From positions 1-64,000 of the IMG/VR virus record IMGVR_UViG_3300050821_017219: a stretch of 64,000 nucleotides of DNA, one strand, 5' to 3'. The stretch is from a virus. Positions 1-64,000 of the stretch are shown here, in pieces. The notes below the pieces were generated by a model, which saw only the letters and a program-made list of their open reading frames with translations, was not told the DNA's origin and did not search any database. The first letter of the stretch is position 1; every line of letters starts with the position of its first letter. The translations under genes were made by a program, and so were the position numbers.

Positions 1-112
1 TGAATCTTCGCCGTTTGCGTCCGTCCAACAGACGTACGCAAGAGGCGGGCGAATCAACCGCAACGGTCAACGGATGCCGCAACATCCGCGCAACGAAAGT
101 CGAGTCAATCAC

Positions 113-14481: not shown

Positions 14482-17121
14482 TTGAGTGCCAACGGCCCCC
14501 CCGGTAATCCCCAGCTCGATGTGCTCCGTGCTCGCGTAGCCATCGGCGGCATCGGCGGGGGTGCGTCCGGCCCTACCGGTGCGACGGGTCCGGCCGGTTC
14601 ACCAGGGGGAGCGACGGGCGCAACTGGTGCCCCCGGAGCAACAGGCGCAGGCGCAACCGGAGCAGTCGGGGCTACAGGTGCGATCGGCGCTACTGGCGCA
14701 GTCGGGGCAACTGGCGCTACCGGCTCTGGCGCTACCGGGGCAACCGGAGCAACAGGTTCCGCCCCTCTCTTTTCGATCACAAATCCAGCGTTTGCGGGAG
14801 GCGCCAGCGCCGCTGCCACACCGACGCAGAACGTCGCCGCTATCAATGCGACAATCGCGGCAGCAAATGCCGCGGGGGGCACGGTCTATGTCCCGAACGA
14901 TCCGGCCGGGGCATACCGCATCAACGCGCCGATCTCGATCCCTCATGACACGGTGATCGTCGGGGAAGCCTCGTCGATCGGTACGCCCAAAAGCGTATTG
15001 CAAGCGGCCGTTGCTATGCCGGCCATGCTGCAAGTTGAAACGCAGCAAAATCAAACCCTGCCGACCCCTGCGCAGATCCGCGCGATCACGCTCGACCAAA
15101 ATCTTCTCGCGATCTGGGGCATCGATCGCCGAAGTGACCTCTCGAGCCGATATAGCAGTGTGCAGTGTCGTAACGCGCCGCTCGATGGCTTCCACTCGAG
15201 CTCACATTCGGTGGCCGTCGCGATTTCGGCTATCGTTCCGGGCGGTGGCGCTGGCGCAGGACAGCTCACGCTCTCGCAACCGGATGTCAGCTACGCGGGC
15301 GACATCTCAAGTTCGGGTACGCACTACGCCATCAAGTTTGTGGTCGCTGGAGGGTACGGCGTCGGGCAATTCGTACTGTCGCAAGACGGGGGCGTAACCT
15401 TCGCTACGGCGCGGCAGACAGTCCAGGCCGTCTCCAATCTCATTGTGACACAGGCTGCTCAGTATACCCACGCGATGGGGTTGCAGGCAACCTTTGCCAA
15501 TATCGTATACGGTCTCAACTGGACTTATACATGGACGGCCACGGGTGGGCTTGAGCCCAACACGAGCAATACGACAATCAACGCGCTCGTGCGCTTCGAC
15601 GATTGCTCTGTCGTCAATCTCGGTGTGGCGTATTGCTCGGACGCCGGTACGCGCGCGATCTACAGCAATCTTTTGGCTCAGGCCTTCACGACTGGTGGGA
15701 CCGTCACCTCGACGCCAGGCTCGCAGCTCTTGGTCGGCACCGGGACGGCGTTTCTCACAGGCTCGCAACCGAATTTGGCGCCTCGACCCGGCGATACTAT
15801 CTGGCTGAATAACAGCCCGGCGGACCCTCGGATCGCCAACTTTCAGATCCTCGCCGTCATGGACGACTTCACGGTGGTCGTATCCGTGGGCGATGCCCCC
15901 AACTTGCCCGCCCTCGCGGGTGTGCACTTCGCGCTCGTCGTCGGAGCCGGCTGCTACGTCACCGATGGCGGCGACAACATCGGAGAGGCTTGGCACGACG
16001 GCTACATGGAGACGGTCGCCAATGGTTGGCGGCTAAGCGGCGTCTCGCCCATGAGCCTCTATAGCCCATTTCTCGAAGCCGACTCCGCCGGTATTGGCGT
16101 GGGGATTGGCGGCCAGATGAGCGCGGGTGCTCAAACTATCGTACAAGCGCCCTACATCAAACTATCAACGCAAGGCCGCCAGTATTACGTCCAGCAGGCT
16201 TCCCTCTGCGAAATCATCGACCCCGAGGGGCCGTTCGGGCCCGATGGGCTAGGGGGCTCGGGCTTCGCGCGCGTCACGTTCAACGGCCAGCCGTACGCCT
16301 ATAACTTCGTCCAGAATGACTTTCAACCCAAAGCCAATTTGGTTTTGCAGGCAAGCGTCGTCTCGGTCACTGTGCCCAATCAAGTCCTCGTCGGCCCTCC
16401 CCTCGATGTGTTCCAGGGGGGCGCCACGGCGTACACGGTGCTTGTCCCGAATGCGGATTACATCGGGACGGCCAACACGCCGCTTTTGCCCGCGCCGAGC
16501 GTGCCCGGACAGCTTTGGCTCATCGAAAATCAGTTGAACAGCGCTCACGTCTTCGAGTTCTTCGATAACGGGACATTCGGGGCATCTCACCTGAACCTGG
16601 CGTGTCAGTCGCTTTTTATGTTTCCGGGCGAGCGGATGCTACTCGTCGCCTCGGAGGTCGCCGGCTCTGTTGCCTCGTGGCAGATCATGGGGGACGTCCA
16701 GCGGAGCTACCGCGGCCAGAGCGGCGAGGGAAGCAAGTGCGGGCCGGGCTCGGGCGTGGCGATCGGCGTCGGAACGATCAACGTGCAGCTCTGGGACGTC
16801 GTGTTTGTTCCAACGAGAGGTTTTGCCGCAAAGCTCAACGTCAGCGTCAAGGACGCGGCATCGGCCTCGTTTGCGTGTTGGCTCGGCTGCACGGTGGGCG
16901 TCGACGGCACGGGGGCCATCATCGGGCAATTCGTACCGACGACGCAGGCGCAAGGCGCCTTCGGCAGCAACGCGGGGCTGCCCCCCGTCGGTTGGGCAAT
17001 GCAATTCGCTATCGTAGTAATCGGGGGCAGTAACCAAGTGGCTGCGCAGGTGACAACGACAGGCGGCATCACGGCAAAAGCGCTTTCCCAGAGCGAGCAG
17101 ATCGCTGCATACCCAATTTAG
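14482..17121 (+). CDS. Collagen-like fibre/spike protein 2 with pectate-lyase-like beta-helix
   Basis: DVLRARV N-motif; GAT repeats; NVAAINATIAAANAAGGTVYVP...AYRI..PISIP..TVIVGE beta-helix cap motif; TTG start. Confidence 0.75.
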   Translation: MSANGPPGNPQLDVLRARVAIGGIGGGASGPTGATGPAGSPGGATGATGAPGATGAGATGAVGATGAIGATGAVGATGATGSGATGATGATGSAPLFSITNPAFAGGASAAATPTQNVAAINATIAAANAAGGTVYVPNDPAGAYRINAPISIPHDTVIVGEASSIGTPKSVLQAAVAMPAMLQVETQQNQTLPTPAQIRAITLDQNLLAIWGIDRRSDLSSRYSSVQCRNAPLDGFHSSSHSVAVAISAIVPGGGAGAGQLTLSQPDVSYAGDISSSGTHYAIKFVVAGGYGVGQFVLSQDGGVTFATARQTVQAVSNLIVTQAAQYTHAMGLQATFANIVYGLNWTYTWTATGGLEPNTSNTTINALVRFDDCSVVNLGVAYCSDAGTRAIYSNLLAQAFTTGGTVTSTPGSQLLVGTGTAFLTGSQPNLAPRPGDTIWLNNSPADPRIANFQILAVMDDFTVVVSVGDAPNLPALAGVHFALVVGAGCYVTDGGDNIGEAWHDGYMETVANGWRLSGVSPMSLYSPFLEADSAGIGVGIGGQMSAGAQTIVQAPYIKLSTQGRQYYVQQASLCEIIDPEGPFGPDGLGGSGFARVTFNGQPYAYNFVQNDFQPKANLVLQASVVSVTVPNQVLVGPPLDVFQGGATAYTVLVPNADYIGTANTPLLPAPSVPGQLWLIENQLNSAHVFEFFDNGTFGASHLNLACQSLFMFPGERMLLVASEVAGSVASWQIMGDVQRSYRGQSGEGSKCGPGSGVAIGVGTINVQLWDVVFVPTRGFAAKLNVSVKDAASASFACWLGCTVGVDGTGAIIGQFVPTTQAQGAFGSNAGLPPVGWAMQFAIVVIGGSNQVAAQVTTTGGITAKALSQSEQIAAYPI

Positions 17122-53706: not shown

Positions 53707-55047
53707 GTGACAACGACGCCGCATTGGCCGCAGGTAGTGGTGCCGCGCCGTGTCGGTGTCGCCGGTCTGACCGATTTTGAGGCGCACTTCGCGTCCGACC
53801 CCAACTTTGCGTCGGCGTGGAACGATGTCGGTGGCCAGCTCCTCGCCGAAGGCGCTAGCAGCTCGCAGGTCGACCAAGCGAAGACGTGGTTCGTCAACGC
53901 CGTCGAGGGAGCTGTCCCTGGGGTAACCGGCGACCAGGCCATCGCCTCCGCGAAGCAGCTCGTGCTGCTTGGGCAGACGGTCATGGGCGCCGTCGCTACG
54001 GTGCAAGGTCTTCTCCAGACCGTCGAAAGTGGGTCGGTCCCACAAATTACGCAGGCGTTTACCGGCGTCTTGATCAGCCTCGGCGTCGGCACTGGGTTAG
54101 TCTCGGCCGGTATCGGCGCGGCCATCGCGCTCGGCATCTCCGTCGTGTTGGCGGCGCTTCAAGACCTTGGATTTTTTACTAGCAACGCCCCTCCGACATT
54201 TGACATCCCTGGGTGCGGCAAGTGGTACTGGGTGCCGGACTACCTCATCGGATGCATGGGCGTTCAAGCGAAGGGCGGCACTGCCAACGATCCGCTCTTG
54301 ACGCAACCCTTTCATGTCGCGCCGGGCTCCCCCAACTGGCGGACGTTCCCGGTGCCGGGCAACATCATCCCATACGTCGAAGGCGCGGACAAAGAATGGT
54401 ACGTCCCTGGGTTGGGGATGGTTGGCCACTGGAAGGGCATCTTCATCGACTACGGCGCCGTCGATGCAAGCGATGGGCGGCGGCCGATCGATCGCGCGTT
54501 TCCGAATTTTCGGCAGCTCGAAGCGGACAGCGGACCGGGAGCAAGCGACTTCCAGCGCGCGTTCGGTGGCGCATGGCGAAGCAACGCGGAGTATGCGTTC
54601 AACGGGTTGAAGCCGCAGCCAGACGAACAGGTGCTGCTCCATACCATTCGATTGTGGAACCGTTCGCACGATGGCCCCGCAGTTACGCTCGATCAAAGCA
54701 ACGCGACCTACGCCAATTCGCTCGTCGACGCCGCCGTCAACAACGTGATGTCGAGTGACATCGGTTTGCTGTCTGGCCAAAGCTTGCTCGTCAACGCCGG
54801 TGGGTTGAAAACCCAAACGCCACGTGTCGTCACGCTGCATCTAGGCGGTAGTTTCGATTCAGCGACGTCGCCAACAACCGGCCTTATGTCGTCGACGGGT
54901 GGAAAAATTCTCGCGGGTACAGCTGCAATCGGCGGCGCCGCACTGCTCGGAAGCGCGGCGTACGCCTTCGCAAAGAAAGAGAGCATCGGCGCCGTCTGGA
55001 AGAACGTCTTCAAGACGGTGACGAAACCTCTGAGAGGTGGAAGATGA
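53707..55047 (+). CDS. Membrane-associated putative virion protein
   Basis: Internal and C-terminal hydrophobic segments; GTG start 6 nt after TACGAT. Confidence 0.6.
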   Translation: MTTTPHWPQVVVPRRVGVAGLTDFEAHFASDPNFASAWNDVGGQLLAEGASSSQVDQAKTWFVNAVEGAVPGVTGDQAIASAKQLVLLGQTVMGAVATVQGLLQTVESGSVPQITQAFTGVLISLGVGTGLVSAGIGAAIALGISVVLAALQDLGFFTSNAPPTFDIPGCGKWYWVPDYLIGCMGVQAKGGTANDPLLTQPFHVAPGSPNWRTFPVPGNIIPYVEGADKEWYVPGLGMVGHWKGIFIDYGAVDASDGRRPIDRAFPNFRQLEADSGPGASDFQRAFGGAWRSNAEYAFNGLKPQPDEQVLLHTIRLWNRSHDGPAVTLDQSNATYANSLVDAAVNNVMSSDIGLLSGQSLLVNAGGLKTQTPRVVTLHLGGSFDSATSPTTGLMSSTGGKILAGTAAIGGAALLGSAAYAFAKKESIGAVWKNVFKTVTKPLRGGR

Positions 55048-55370
55048 GACGAAGACACGGTCGTAGAAATCCTTCGACGCAAACGACGACGCTGCTGATC
55101 GCCGGTGGCGGTTTGGCGCTGCTCGGCGTTGGCGTCTACCTCTTCACGAAGAAGCCAGCGGCGGCGACAACGACGACTGCGATCACGGCGACGTCACCAA
55201 ATTCTCGACCGTTCGGTGACCCCGCCAACACGTCGAGCGTCGCGTTCGCGTGCAACACCTGCTGGAAGCTGAACGCACTCGGCCATCCGACGCAGGCGAC
55301 GGCGTGGTGCACGAAATGCACCGCCAACGGTGGGGTAGTACCGCAAAGCGCTGCTCAGTTGTATACTTGA
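55044..55370 (+). CDS. Small membrane protein (RRNP, TM, two CxxC)
   Basis: MRRRHGRRNPS; TM; CNTC/CTKC. Confidence 0.6.
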   Translation: MRRRHGRRNPSTQTTTLLIAGGGLALLGVGVYLFTKKPAAATTTTAITATSPNSRPFGDPANTSSVAFACNTCWKLNALGHPTQATAWCTKCTANGGVVPQSAAQLYT

Positions 55371-59731: not shown

Positions 59732-62035
59732 ATGAGCGACTTCTCGCCTTCGCTGCAAAACGCGGCCGCCGCCGGTATCCCGACGACGCGGCAGCCGTAT
59801 CTCGACGGCAACGCTGGCGTTCGCCAGAGCCTCGAAGCGATGGCGCTGAAGATGCGCGAGGGCCGCGTTGATCCTGCGGTAGTCGGTTGGGCGGGTGGCG
59901 TTTTGAAGGATGCGGGGTTGGACGGTCGCGACGGCTTTCCGATCCGTCGTCAAGTCTCGGCGTTGCTCGAAGCGTTGCGCAGCCAAGTCATTTACGCGCC
60001 CGATGCGTACGGCGCTGAAGTCGTGTCGAGCGCGGCTGCAACGCTCTGTCTACGACCGAACCTCTGTCTTCACCGCGGCGACTGTTTCCCGAGCGGGACG
60101 TTGCTTCTTCGAGAAGACTACGAGCTCGTTCCGATCGAAAAGATCAAGGTAGGCGAGCGAATCTGGGGGCTCGACGGTTGGACGACCATCAAAGCGACCG
60201 CCTTCAAGGGCAACCTCGCCGTCGACGCGATCGAGATGAACAACGGCTCGACGATGTTTTTGACCGGCGAGCACAAGGTCTTCGTCGGGCGATGCAAACA
60301 CGATCGGACGATCTGCCCGTCGTGCTATCCGGCGCTACGACGAGAGCGCTTCGAGCGGGTCTCTGTTGCGGACCTTCAAGAAGGAGAGGTTCTTCTTCAA
60401 CCCGAGCGAATCGCCTTCGGCTCTGAAGAACCAGATCCCGGACGCATGTATATCGAAGGGCTGTACATCTCCGACGGTTGGTCGGAAGAAAACCGCTTCG
60501 CCATCTCCGGCAAGGACGGCTGTCGAAAAGAAGCGCAGAAGCACGAGGTCAAAGCGATCTGTGAGCGGCTCGGCATCCCGACCTACTGGCACAAGAGGTA
60601 CATCCGCATCAACGATGCCGCATGGGCCAATCGTCTAGCGCAGCGTGGAACGCGTGCACGCTTCAAGCACATCGAGACGCTCAACCTCAACGAAGCCGCC
60701 GCCGAAGCACTGCTCCGCGGGGTTATGGCCGACAGTACCGCGAACACGAACGGCCCCGGTCGAACATTCTCGACGACGTCTCGAGAGCTGATGGTTCAGA
60801 TGCGCATCTTGCAGCGCATGTTCGGCGTATCGACGGGGCTCAAAATGTTGACCCCCGCGCAACACGGCGGCGTTGGAACGCATAATCTGTGGCGTCTCGG
60901 CGTCCGAGCGACGAACGGCCGTACCGAAAAAACGCTGGCCGTGAAGTCGATCGACCGCGCCGTCCGAAAGGTTCCGTGTTGGGACATCCAGACGGAAGAC
61001 CACTACGTCTACCTCGCCGAGCATGATGTGACGGTCTCCAACTGTGACGATCTCGCCGTCGCGCTTGGTTCTGCAACCCTTTCGTTGGGCATTCCGACCG
61101 TCATCGTGAAGCAAAACTTCGGCGGCGAAAATCAAGAGCATGTTCTCATCGCCTTCCAGGACGAGAACCAAGAGTGGACCTACGCTGATCCCTCGACGAA
61201 GCTTCCCGTCGGTCGCGCACCGCAAGGTGCCGTCGATGAGATCTGGATCGACCCGATGGGGCCGGTTGGACCGATTCCAGAGGCTGGCGCTGAAATCGTC
61301 ACGCTTGGATCTGCGATAGCGTCTTCGTTTTCGTCTGAGATTCATTCGCCAGTCGAAAGACGGATGCATTTCGCCGGCAACCATTGGTGGCATCACGATG
61401 CGTCGGGTGTCTCTGTCTACGTCGACGACGCATGGCTTTCGACAGGTCTCTCTGGAATCCCTTCCGAAGTCGGCGTCGGCACCATCTTCGGTGCGCCAAC
61501 GGTCAACGAGATGATCGATTTCGCTTCGGTGGTCGGCGCCGAGATGAAAGACATCGGCGCGGTACCGACGACGTGCACCGGTTGGCCGAAAGACCCCGTC
61601 GGCTACCAAGCGTGGCTGATGGACATGCAAGACACGATGGCCGAGTTTCAGACGGCGAGCGACGCAGCGTTGGCGAAATTCAACTCGACGTCGAAGTATC
61701 TGCGCGACTTCACGTCGGCACCGGAGGAAATGAACGCGCTCGCCGATGTGGCTCGACAAATCACCGACTTGGATCGCCGACTGCGCGCAGCAACGGGTGG
61801 CGCCGGTTGCTCGGCCCCGACCTACGCCGACGTGCAGCAACCCCAGGCTATCGATTGGGACCTGCAGGGCTATCAAGGCGCCGACTTCGCCGCGAAGGTC
61901 GTCGAAAACGCCGGCAAAAAAATCGCAGGCGCGGCGCAACCAGCGGGCATCGCGTTTGGTGGTCTCATCGTCGGCGCTGCGCTCGCCGTCGCCGGCTTGA
62001 TCGTGTTGGACCACATGCTGCCGTCGCGTCGTTAG
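59732..62035 (+). CDS. Intein-containing transglutaminase-like cysteine protease with C-terminal TM
   Basis: Spliced product reads HRGD-CDDLAVALG...EHVL...WTYADPS (Cys-His-Asp triad). Confidence 0.8.
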   Translation: MSDFSPSLQNAAAAGIPTTRQPYLDGNAGVRQSLEAMALKMREGRVDPAVVGWAGGVLKDAGLDGRDGFPIRRQVSALLEALRSQVIYAPDAYGAEVVSSAAATLCLRPNLCLHRGDCFPSGTLLLREDYELVPIEKIKVGERIWGLDGWTTIKATAFKGNLAVDAIEMNNGSTMFLTGEHKVFVGRCKHDRTICPSCYPALRRERFERVSVADLQEGEVLLQPERIAFGSEEPDPGRMYIEGLYISDGWSEENRFAISGKDGCRKEAQKHEVKAICERLGIPTYWHKRYIRINDAAWANRLAQRGTRARFKHIETLNLNEAAAEALLRGVMADSTANTNGPGRTFSTTSRELMVQMRILQRMFGVSTGLKMLTPAQHGGVGTHNLWRLGVRATNGRTEKTLAVKSIDRAVRKVPCWDIQTEDHYVYLAEHDVTVSNCDDLAVALGSATLSLGIPTVIVKQNFGGENQEHVLIAFQDENQEWTYADPSTKLPVGRAPQGAVDEIWIDPMGPVGPIPEAGAEIVTLGSAIASSFSSEIHSPVERRMHFAGNHWWHHDASGVSVYVDDAWLSTGLSGIPSEVGVGTIFGAPTVNEMIDFASVVGAEMKDIGAVPTTCTGWPKDPVGYQAWLMDMQDTMAEFQTASDAALAKFNSTSKYLRDFTSAPEEMNALADVARQITDLDRRLRAATGGAGCSAPTYADVQQPQAIDWDLQGYQGADFAAKVVENAGKKIAGAAQPAGIAFGGLIVGAALAVAGLIVLDHMLPSRR
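60083..61042 (+). mobile_element. Intein (320 aa) with LAGLIDADG-type homing endonuclease
   Basis: CFPSGT block A; LTGEH block B; GLYISDG and LLRGVMADS endonuclease motifs; WDIQT..HY block F; ends VSN followed by Cys+1. Confidence 0.9.
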
Positions 62036-62042
62036 GCGTCGA

Positions 62043-62507
62043 ATGATCATCGTCAAAGGGAAGGCAGTCAGCTTCGACATGGCGAACGGCGACGAAATCG
62101 ATGCGCCAGCGCGCTCGGCGATGTTGCACGATCCGCGCGGCAAATTCTGGCGTCGAAATTCTATTCTTGTTGCGCCATTCAAACGCGGCGGCGGTGGTGA
62201 AGTCGACGGCGACAGCGACTCGAAAGACTATCTCGGCCGAACGCATCTGACGCGCGTCGGTGATGTACCGCTTCCCCCGAAAGAGTTGTCGGCCTGGACG
62301 TACGAAGGCGAAGTGAGCGAGATTTGGTACACGCGTCACGGCGCAAAGTACGGCGGCAAGCGGTTCCGCCACGCGTTCAACAAGTCGTTGCTCGGCCGGC
62401 TCGTGAAGGGAACCGGCAAGGCGCGGCTGTACAGCCGTGGTAGTCTCTACCGATTGGAGCTACCGCGCGGCGCCATTGTCGATGGGAGAGGATTTTTATG
62501 GCCGTGA
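62043..62507 (+). CDS. Hypothetical protein
   Basis: 154-aa ORF in operon context. Confidence 0.55.
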   Translation: MIIVKGKAVSFDMANGDEIDAPARSAMLHDPRGKFWRRNSILVAPFKRGGGGEVDGDSDSKDYLGRTHLTRVGDVPLPPKELSAWTYEGEVSEIWYTRHGAKYGGKRFRHAFNKSLLGRLVKGTGKARLYSRGSLYRLELPRGAIVDGRGFLWP

Positions 62508-63019
62508 TCTGGAAGTCTGTCGTCGGTTACGAGGGGTTGTACGACGTCTCTGACGAAGGACAGATCCGGCGTGTGGCGCCGGGGCGACGTACACACCCCG
62601 GGCGTATCGTTGTCGGTGGCGTCTCGAAGGGGCGTTACCGCATCGTCAAACTCTATCGAGGAACGACGAAGAGCGACTTCCGCGGGTTCTCCGTTCACGG
62701 TCTCGTCGCGGCAGCCTTTCTTGGCCCGCGTCCGGAAAGGGGCGAGGTGAACCACAAGAACGGCATCAAGACGGACAACAGGCTCGAGAATTTAGAGTAC
62801 ACAACCCGCCTCGGAAACGCGCGCCACGCAGCAGTGAACGGGCTGCTCCGAAACGGCGAACGAGTCGTCGGCTCCAAGCTTACGGCCGACAATGTTCGCT
62901 CCATCCGCGCTCTGTCCGCTTTTGGCGTTCCGAAGCGACGGATCGCGAAGATGTTCGGCATCGCGCATTCGACCACGCAAAGCATCATCGACCGTCGTTG
63001 GTGGAAGCACGTCGCATGA
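62498..63019 (+). CDS. NUMOD4-HNH homing endonuclease
   Basis: WKSVVGYEGLYDVSDEG; VHGLVAAAFLG; VNHKNGIKTDNRLENLEY. Confidence 0.92.
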   Translation: MAVIWKSVVGYEGLYDVSDEGQIRRVAPGRRTHPGRIVVGGVSKGRYRIVKLYRGTTKSDFRGFSVHGLVAAAFLGPRPERGEVNHKNGIKTDNRLENLEYTTRLGNARHAAVNGLLRNGERVVGSKLTADNVRSIRALSAFGVPKRRIAKMFGIAHSTTQSIIDRRWWKHVA

Positions 63020-64000
63020 TCGATTATTCGCGCATGATTGACGCCAGCCGCAACGCGCCCGAACACGCGGCATCTGCGCCCGTCTTCTACGAAACAGCGA
63101 AGACGAAGACGCGCGCGCGTAGCCGTCGTTTGACAAAGCGCAAGAAACAAGCTTCACTTACAAAAGCGCGCGACCGGAAATCCACGAACCGTCGTCGTCG
63201 AAGCACCCCAGGGAAGGCTGCATCGATGGCAAAGCGAAGAATGTCGAGAAAGCAGCGCGCAGCGGCGCTGAAGAACCTCAAGAAGGCTCGCTCCGCCCGT
63301 CGGAGCAAAGCTTCTCGGCGCGGGATGCGCGTTCGGCTTCATCGGAAGTCGCCCCGTCGGCGCCGCTACATGACCGGCGGTGGTGTGAAGACGAAGCGTC
63401 GTCGTCGCCGCAAGGCCAAGCCGGAAGCAGAAGCAACACCGAAGCGTCGTCGGCGTAAGTCGGGCGGCAAGCGGAAGTCGGCCAAGCGAGTCGCGGCTGG
63501 CAAGAAGGCCGCTCGTACGCGCAAGCGCCGTCACTCCCGCAAGGGTGGCGCACCGAAACGCCGTCGTCGTCGGTCGCGCAAAGCCTCGGCGGCTCCCCGG
63601 CGGCGGCGTCGGCGTTCACGTCGGTCGTCTCCCCGTCGTCGTCGGCGCAGCCGCAAGACCGGTCGGGCGATGTCGATGCGACTCCCCCGTCGGGCGCGCA
63701 AGGTCTACGTCGTCGCCGCCGAGAAGCGCCGTCGTCGTGGACGCGGCCGTCGTCGTCACGGCGCGATGGAAAATCCGCTCTCTGGCGTCGAGCTGTTCGT
63801 CGGAAGCCTCTTCGGGTTGACCGGCTTCGCCATCGGCGATCTCACCGACCGCCTCATCGCGACCCACGCGTTGACGTTGAAGAGCGCCGCGACCACCACC
63901 ACGCCGGCCCTCTACGCCGACAACCCCCCGACGACCGGCAGCTACGCTGGCCTCTTCAATCCGACGGCGATCACTTCGCCGATGAACCTCCCCCGATGGG
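63016..64000 (+). CDS. Protamine-like Arg/Lys-rich protein, putative DNA-condensing core protein (partial, not in track)
   Basis: Hand-translated frame open from ATG 63016 to the window end; SPRRRR, APRRRRRR and TPKRRRR runs, then GAMENP and a hydrophobic segment. Confidence 0.8.
   Translation, partial: MIDYSRMIDASRNAPEHAASAPVFYETAKTKTRARSRRLTKRKKQASLTKARDRKSTNRRRRSTPGKAASMAKRRMSRKQRAAALKNLKKARSARRSKASRRGMRVRLHRKSPRRRRYMTGGGVKTKRRRRRKAKPEAEATPKRRRRKSGGKRKSAKRVAAGKKAARTRKRRHSRKGGAPKRRRRRSRKASAAPRRRRRRSRRSSPRRRRRSRKTGRAMSMRLPRRARKVYVVAAEKRRRRGRGRRRHGAMENPLSGVELFVGSLFGLTGFAIGDLTDRLIATHALTLKSAATTTTPALYADNPPTTGSYAGLFNPTAITSPMNLPRW

Follow-up and report, generated by a model that had tools for sequence, protein, structure and literature searches.

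A conserved, strongly basic arm joined to a hydrophobic domain in a putative virion protein encoded beside capsid candidates of an uncultured virus

The DNA analysed in this study (the window) spans positions 1 to 64,000 of one viral contig of 78,382 bp, IMG/VR record IMGVR_UViG_3300050821_017219. At its right-hand end lies a plus-strand gene, hereafter the target gene, for a protein with an extremely basic arm fused to a hydrophobic domain. Our analysis revealed that the gene is real and conserved: related viruses keep the charge of the arm and the position of the gene, and the C-terminal domain folds confidently in structure prediction. The explanation that we favour, with somewhat better than even confidence, is a virion-internal protein that binds, neutralises and compacts the viral DNA and is anchored to a membrane or to the shell.

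An initial annotation, made from the letters of the window, had proposed an overlooked frame running off the window's edge, to be translated in full on an extended contig. The frame was found as proposed: it starts at ATG 63016 (alternative TTG at 62998), is still open at the window's last base, 64000, and closes at a stop at position 64548 of the full contig, giving a 510-residue protein (P0001). All strings that had been read in it, KSPRRRRY, APRRRRRRSRRSSPRRRRRSRK, AMENP and YMTGGG, were located in this protein. The arm (residues 1-250) contains 78 arginines and 33 lysines against eight aspartic and glutamic acids, a net charge of +103; arginine and lysine together make up 44% of the arm and 11% of the remaining predicted proteome of the same virus. 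The very basic tract is thus present, with a length of about 250 rather than the 230 residues first estimated. SPRRRR strings exist in it too, but only in two copies, and the target gene has no tandem repeats of note at the DNA level, so what had been described as SPRRRR repeats represents compositional bias. The fusion to a hydrophobic domain held up as well, since a conserved domain follows AMENP and its first helix (residues 255-274) reaches a Kyte-Doolittle 19-mer value of 1.63. In order, the protein consists of the basic arm, a GAMENP junction, the helical hydrophobic domain, a CxxC motif, a proline-rich tail and a terminal WG.

Composition alone cannot prove the coding status of the arm. 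Its GC content is flat over the three codon positions (0.64, 0.69 and 0.66), and the neighbouring genes have the usual high third-position GC. CGT accounts for 41% of arginine codons in the arm (63016-63765) and 15% in other genes. Gene callers of public collections often place the start of the target gene at the junction methionine; because of this and of the flat codon-position GC, the arm is easily missed or under-annotated. The frame is nevertheless not an artefact of GC-rich DNA, since homologues preserve the frame, the short motifs and the charge with lysine (AAR codons) in place of arginine. A search with residues 250-510 identified 84 homologous proteins with E-values from 1e-20 to 1e-153, many of them encoded on contigs 45-95 kb long. 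A profile of the C-terminal domain, run against 1.84 billion representatives, matched 368 clusters, of which 244 had E-values below 1e-10. All homologues are metagenomic or come from metagenome-assembled genomes (MAGs) of Myxococcota.

A total of 78 homologues with an arm of more than 100 residues were used for analysis of the arm. Arm length ranges from 128 to 395 residues (median 228), net charge from +44 to +123 (median +80) and the share of arginine plus lysine from 29 to 48% (median 39%). The ratio of arginine to lysine spans 78:33 to 17:67 and 34:95. Apart from short islands, among them a conserved LT motif, the sequence of the arm is poorly conserved. A long tract rich in arginine and lysine with almost no acidic residues, its composition kept across relatives, places the arm in the protamine-like class, and retention of charge while sequence drifts is the pattern that would be expected of non-specific polyanion binding. 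With respect to expression, two 151-nt contigs from one soil metatranscriptome run are identical to L001:1761-1911 and L001:1926-2076, inside the target gene, which gives a weak hint of transcription with DNA carry-over as a possible source. Each of the sequencing runs held 9% or less of the sampled words. Watershed and soil DNA metagenomes contain relatives at about 90% identity in the same gene order.

AlphaFold2 (AF2) modelling with 65 homologues gave residues 250-410 a predicted local distance difference test score (pLDDT) above 90, with helices at 257-282, 325-342 and 348-380 and a small hairpin. The helices are glycine-rich and moderately hydrophobic and carry the invariant residues E259, D275, D278, R279, R327 and K368; membrane insertion of the domain is plausible. 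Family searches of Pfam-A (510-residue protein, E up to 0.01), PHROGs and NCBIfam found no family for the target protein or its neighbours. With a profile of the 65 homologues, E 0.33 was the lower limit for any PDB chain; neither of the two models drew a significant match from Foldseek (PDB, BFVD) or VIA-align, and the best feature score in the ESM Atlas was 0.87, below a useful level. No description of the virus group or the protein was found in the literature.

The position of the gene is conserved, too. Eight IMG/VR contigs (38-77 kb) share the order transglutaminase-like protein, 154-residue protein, target protein, and then proteins of 455, 249 and 283 residues; these last three are beta-rich capsid candidates. 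The initial annotation would have given up its proposal had conserved homologues been missing beside structural genes; in fact they always lie directly upstream of the best capsid candidates. The 455-residue neighbour is the most conserved gene seen, with 270 homologues (the best 120 of the 270 at 50% identity or more), and has the highest third-position GC, 0.86.

How such a protein might work can be outlined from these features. The disordered 250-residue arm, with its +103 charge and three short basic helices, would bind the DNA backbone without sequence specificity, and would thereby neutralise and compact the genome. The C-terminal domain would fix the protein to an inner layer of the particle, which could be a lipid membrane or the inside of a jelly-roll-like shell. 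With about 156,600 phosphates in the genome and +103 per full-length copy, full neutralisation corresponds to about 1,500 copies. At 500-800 copies, the number given for adenovirus pVII (PMC7998265), about a third to a half of the charge would be neutralised.

Analysis of the islands within the arm suggested that the protein may be made in two forms. The N-terminal island appears in the homologue alignment as DY-x3-L ... HAA and is modelled as a short helix (residues 4-12, pLDDT about 76). Further along, Met71 is followed by a basic helix of the KQRAAALKNLKKARSA or KQRAAALKNLKKA type, which is present two to four times in some homologues; KSPRRRR is conserved in part as K-S/T-P-R/K-R-R, and KSAKRVAAGKKAARTRKRR is near-identical in the window, L004 and L009-L011. 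Met71 is kept in at least 90% of the 65 homologues though its flanks vary. In seven of eight loci GGAG, GAGG or AGGA occurs at positions -16 to -5 of Met71, compared with 1-14% at other codon positions of the arms; the window copy has only the weaker GGGAAGG, within AGGGAAGG. Because even relatives at 31-36% identity conserve the protein sequence ahead of Met71, use of both starts is probable. Initiation at Met1 and Met71 would probably yield two nested products, a long form with the N-terminal interaction motif and a shorter form. A further internal start at the junction methionine (MENP) was rejected, as a Shine-Dalgarno-like (SD-like) motif is missing there in five of six loci.

The junction between arm and domain, G-A-M-E-N-P, is strongly conserved, with N253 and P254 present in at least 90% of homologues. 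Genuine reading frames alone showed a pattern of at least five basic residues, N-P and a hydrophobic helix within about 10 residues: two further proteins encoded by this genome have it, one at the extreme N-terminus and the other internally, as do seven small proteins from related loci, for the most part at the N-terminus or close to it. Small membrane proteins with N-terminal M-(R/K)4-6-x-N-P-x3-5-W followed by a hydrophobic helix were likewise seen in real frames only, and this N-terminal signature may be a lineage-specific topogenic or virion-targeting tag. Since cleavage is unnecessary at an N-terminus, N-P is read as a helix cap after a positive-inside tail, and the junction of the target protein accordingly looks like a basic-tail/helix-cap membrane signature, not a cleavage site. 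On that reading the target protein would belong to the signature set, its tail having lengthened from about 10 to 250 residues. Relatives whose tails measure 12-33 residues exist and fit this view, as does an arm-less copy beside an integrase in a MAG chromosome. This copy, of 266 residues (L002:9956-10756), lies on a contig of 302 kb from a Myxococcota-like MAG, with a ParA-like gene and a tyrosine integrase nearby, and no capsid-candidate genes occur within 10 kb on either side. Many database proteins start exactly at MENP. As separate anchor genes they were rejected: they look like gene-calling choices or truncated contigs, and the end of a longer in-frame open reading frame (ORF) in L010 is identical to at least one of them.

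The initial annotation had also read YMTGGG as an adenoviral protease site and the arm as released by cleavage. Neither claim was supported. YMTGGG is shared only with one 94%-identical fragment, 60-63 of the 65 aligned homologues have a gap at the window's MTGGG column, and five of 78 arms contain adenain-type motifs, at non-homologous positions; an adenain-type site at YMTGGG was therefore rejected as not conserved. Neither the junction nor the arm yielded a conserved cleavage motif. No match to an adenain family was found among the ORFs scanned, a set with some but not all of the small ORFs, and the sole candidate protease is the transglutaminase-like protein. The proposal of a genome-condensing core protein remains the best-supported explanation, tethering to the viral membrane is plausible, and for release of the arm by cleavage no support emerged.

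Genome compaction was weighed against four other explanations. It is rather unlikely that the arm does not touch DNA and serves as glue or spacer on anionic lipid or an acidic inner capsid, between membrane and shell or on the host inner membrane. The positive-inside rule puts the +103 arm on the cytoplasmic face, which in the assembly model of PRD1 becomes the outside of the internal vesicle, and the basic-tail/NP/helix signature also occurs on several small membrane proteins. However, about 100 net charges over 130-395 residues, with free exchange of arginine and lysine, are far beyond the need of an anchor, for which short-tailed relatives and sibling signature proteins suffice with 5-9 basic residues, and the leader of the main capsid candidate (455 residues) is basic or glycine-rich, not acidic. 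Topology is at the same time the main caveat to genome compaction: an arm of +103 cannot plausibly cross a membrane, and PRD1-like inward budding would leave it facing the shell, not the DNA. For the arm to lie on the genome side, the membrane would have to arise by wrapping or de novo. We regard as unlikely a low-copy genome-delivery (pilot or ejection) protein whose arm holds the DNA or one of its ends while the hydrophobic domain forms or lines an entry channel. A putative nucleic-acid-binding arm combined with a helical, glycine-rich hydrophobic domain would suit such a role, and the conserved N-terminal motif and the tail islands suggest specific partners; but in length and charge the arm scales as would be expected of a bulk neutraliser and not of an end-binder, tail or vertex genes are not recognisable for comparison, and the position directly before the capsid candidates may point to high expression.

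A factor acting only in assembly, as a scaffold or DNA recruiter at the membrane site that is removed or degraded before maturation, appears very unlikely. In all loci a candidate transglutaminase-like protease is encoded two genes upstream, and the short islands LPSAGLG and G-x-G-W/Y-P-S-x-P-R-E are kept in otherwise variable linkers. These G-x-G islands, however, sit in the C-terminal tail, where cutting would not free the arm, and the lack of a conserved cleavage motif in the arm or at its junction argues in the same direction. Most improbable of all is a host-directed or lysis function, in which a membrane-anchored polycation compacts or sequesters the host nucleoid or permeabilises the envelope late in infection. 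A polycation with a membrane domain can disturb membranes, and the arm-less copy in the Myxococcota MAG chromosome stands beside an integrase without capsid genes. Against this, gene order within the capsid-candidate block is strict in all eight viral loci, and searches of Pfam, PHROGs and NCBIfam revealed no similarity to holins, spanins or nucleoid proteins.

The features of the target gene and its surroundings are listed in Table 1.

Table 1. Features of the target gene and neighbouring genes (window positions unless marked as contig or locus positions)
Feature	Position	Strand	Remarks
Target gene, window part	63016..64000	+	First 985 of 1,533 nt; rest to contig 64548; whole gene L001:1016-2548
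N-terminal motif M-x-DY-x3-hydrophobic...HAA	63016..63075	+	Conserved even in relatives at 31-36% identity
Probable internal start Met71	Purine-rich AGGGAAGG 63210-63217, 8 nt before ATG 63226-63228	+	Alignment and SD-like motif
Basic helix, KQRAAALKNLKKARSA type	63247..63327	+	AF2 helix, residues 78-104, pLDDT 76-91
KSPRRRR then YMTGGG	63349..63384 (YMTGGG 63367-63384)	+	KSPRRRR partly conserved, YMTGGG not
Basic helix KSAKRVAAGKKAARTRKRR	63475..63531	+	AF2 helix, residues 156-171
Junction motif A-M-E-N-P (residues 250-254)	63763..63777	+	Between arm and hydrophobic domain
Hydrophobic helical domain, start	63778..64000	+	Residues 255 to about 415, ends at contig about 64260
CxxC, G-x-G-W/Y-P-S-x-P-R-E, Pro-rich tail, terminal WG	to contig 64548	+	After the domain
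Transglutaminase-like protein, membrane-anchored	59732..62035	+	Candidate protease or cross-linker, two genes upstream of target in related loci
Conserved 154-residue protein	62043..62507	+	Precedes target gene in all related loci
HNH/NUMOD4 homing endonuclease	62498..63019	+	Only in this genome; absent from 8/8 related loci
Small signature proteins	55044-55370; contig about 67900-68360 (L001:5900-6359)		Also small ORFs in L004, L005 and L006

Upstream, the transglutaminase-like gene is split by a LAGLIDADG intein (Pfam LAGLIDADG_3 and Hint), which begins with Cys, ends with Ser-Asn and is inserted directly before the conserved Cys of GDCDD. The intein is missing from the homologues in L004-L007 and L009-L011. 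These intein-less homologues match nearly the whole Pfam model Transglut_core with E 4.7e-4 and 20.8 bits, compared with a curated cut-off of 23, and the family has an invariant Cys, His and Asp in the expected order; a sequence search of the PDB turned up no relative. The stop codon (TGA) of the HNH/NUMOD4 gene overlaps the ATG of the target gene as ATGA, and the target gene may therefore be translationally coupled to this mobile gene. Promoter and terminator signals around the target gene were no more frequent than chance.

Downstream, the 455-residue capsid candidate has a disordered leader of about 35 residues (contig 64707-64900, L001:2707-2900; pLDDT below 50) with two G-x-G motifs of invariant or near-invariant glycine that resemble the islands in the tail of the target protein. 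The G-x-G motifs of the two proteins could be shared processing or docking sites. A tblastn search with this capsid candidate against 50,697 phage records gave no match. Across the structural block, transmembrane-like segments occur in roughly 11-13 of 27 genes, an indirect hint of lipid in the particle.

A 97-bp direct terminal repeat (window 1-97 and contig 78286-78382) shows the contig to be a complete genome of about 78.3 kb, circular or terminally redundant; the complete relatives available for setting arm charge against genome size span 69-78 kb. Encoded in it are three helicases (SNF2, PIF1-like and a D5-type primase-helicase), a family-A DNA polymerase with a fused UDG, a PD-(D/E)XK nuclease, ThyX, Dam, an AAA_24 protein and a tyrosine integrase, near which no tRNA genes were found. 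An 879-residue protein with a pectate-lyase-like beta-helix domain (window 14482-17121; Pfam PF12708, E 4.4e-7) is probably a host-recognition fibre or depolymerase. Searches of the structural block with Pfam, PHROGs and NCBIfam gave no match to terminase, portal, HK97 capsid or tail families, and a Walker-A scan of 99 called genes, from which a filter on third-position GC had omitted some ORFs, was positive only for three replication-type proteins. The virus is uncultured, temperate and apparently tailless. Relatives occur in two MAGs, one of an 'uncultured delta proteobacterium' and one of a Polyangiaceae bacterium, so the host is probably a member of Myxococcota.

With no recognisable packaging ATPase, terminase or portal, the virus may enclose its genome in part through condensation by the target protein. 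A bolder and doubtful extension is that tailless bacterial viruses of 70-180 kb manage genome enclosure with no packaging motor at all: small arginine-tailed membrane proteins would help a membrane-anchored polycation of about +100 to condense the replicated DNA on the membrane, the shell would then close, and the two nested isoforms would supply a few anchoring and many condensing copies. If true, such motor-less enclosure would be a way of encapsidating a genome that is not known from bacterial viruses. The conserved, strongly charged target protein, found beside the capsid candidates in a widespread group of large soil and freshwater viruses without a recognisable motor, would by itself extend chromatin-like genome packing to bacterial viruses. 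The target protein provides a concrete protein to express, locate and delete.

To our knowledge, bacterial viruses with double-stranded DNA that are in culture use an ATPase motor to pump naked DNA into a preformed shell, and a DNA-compacting virion protein has not been described for them. As far as we know, PRD1 (P3: PDB 1hqn, 1w8x), other Tectiviridae and the Corticoviridae, all with an internal membrane, package naked DNA of 10-15 kb by an FtsK/HerA-type ATPase. No FtsK/HerA-type ATPase is recognisable among the genes scanned here. Turning to the protein itself, we know of no comparable polycationic protein from Tectiviridae or Corticoviridae. Protein-condensed genomes occur in adenoviruses, baculoviruses, giant viruses and a few archaeal viruses. 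In protamines, baculovirus P6.9 and the C-terminal domain of the hepatitis B virus core protein, arginine runs broken by Ser or Ser-Pro (SPRRR-like) neutralise the charge of nucleic acid; these tracts have low sequence conservation and conserved composition, measure about 30-100 residues, and are free or carried on a capsid assembly domain. The target arm resembles them in having arginine runs with Ser-Pro and in keeping composition over sequence, and differs in that it contains only two SPRRRR strings, of which only the first is partly conserved.

Among viruses with an inner lipid layer, the Portogloboviridae offer a comparison: in the sections of the account drawn on here, Sulfolobus polyhedral virus 1 (SPV1) has a shell of protein, an inner layer of lipid and a core of nucleoprotein (PMC8459092; PDB 6oj0), and these sections do not describe the core protein as membrane-anchored (PMC8459092). 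SPV1 differs in its archaeal host and in its genome of about 20 kb, compared with 78 kb here; the match is far below significance. In adenoviruses, proteins VII and pre-Mu (pX) are arginine-rich virion proteins that bind the genome non-covalently, help to condense it and are matured by the adenovirus protease at (M/I/L)XGG-X or (M/I/L)XGX-G, and pVII is described as a functional mimic of protamine (PMC7998265). Unlike the adenovirus core proteins, the target protein belongs to a virus of a bacterial host, shows no sequence or profile similarity to them and has no conserved processing sites of this kind; its arm exceeds mature Mu 5-10 times in length, and a conserved helical domain of 160 residues is fused to it. 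What it shares with pre-Mu is a hydrophobic segment joined to a basic one, and adenoviral core genes, too, lie among late structural genes.
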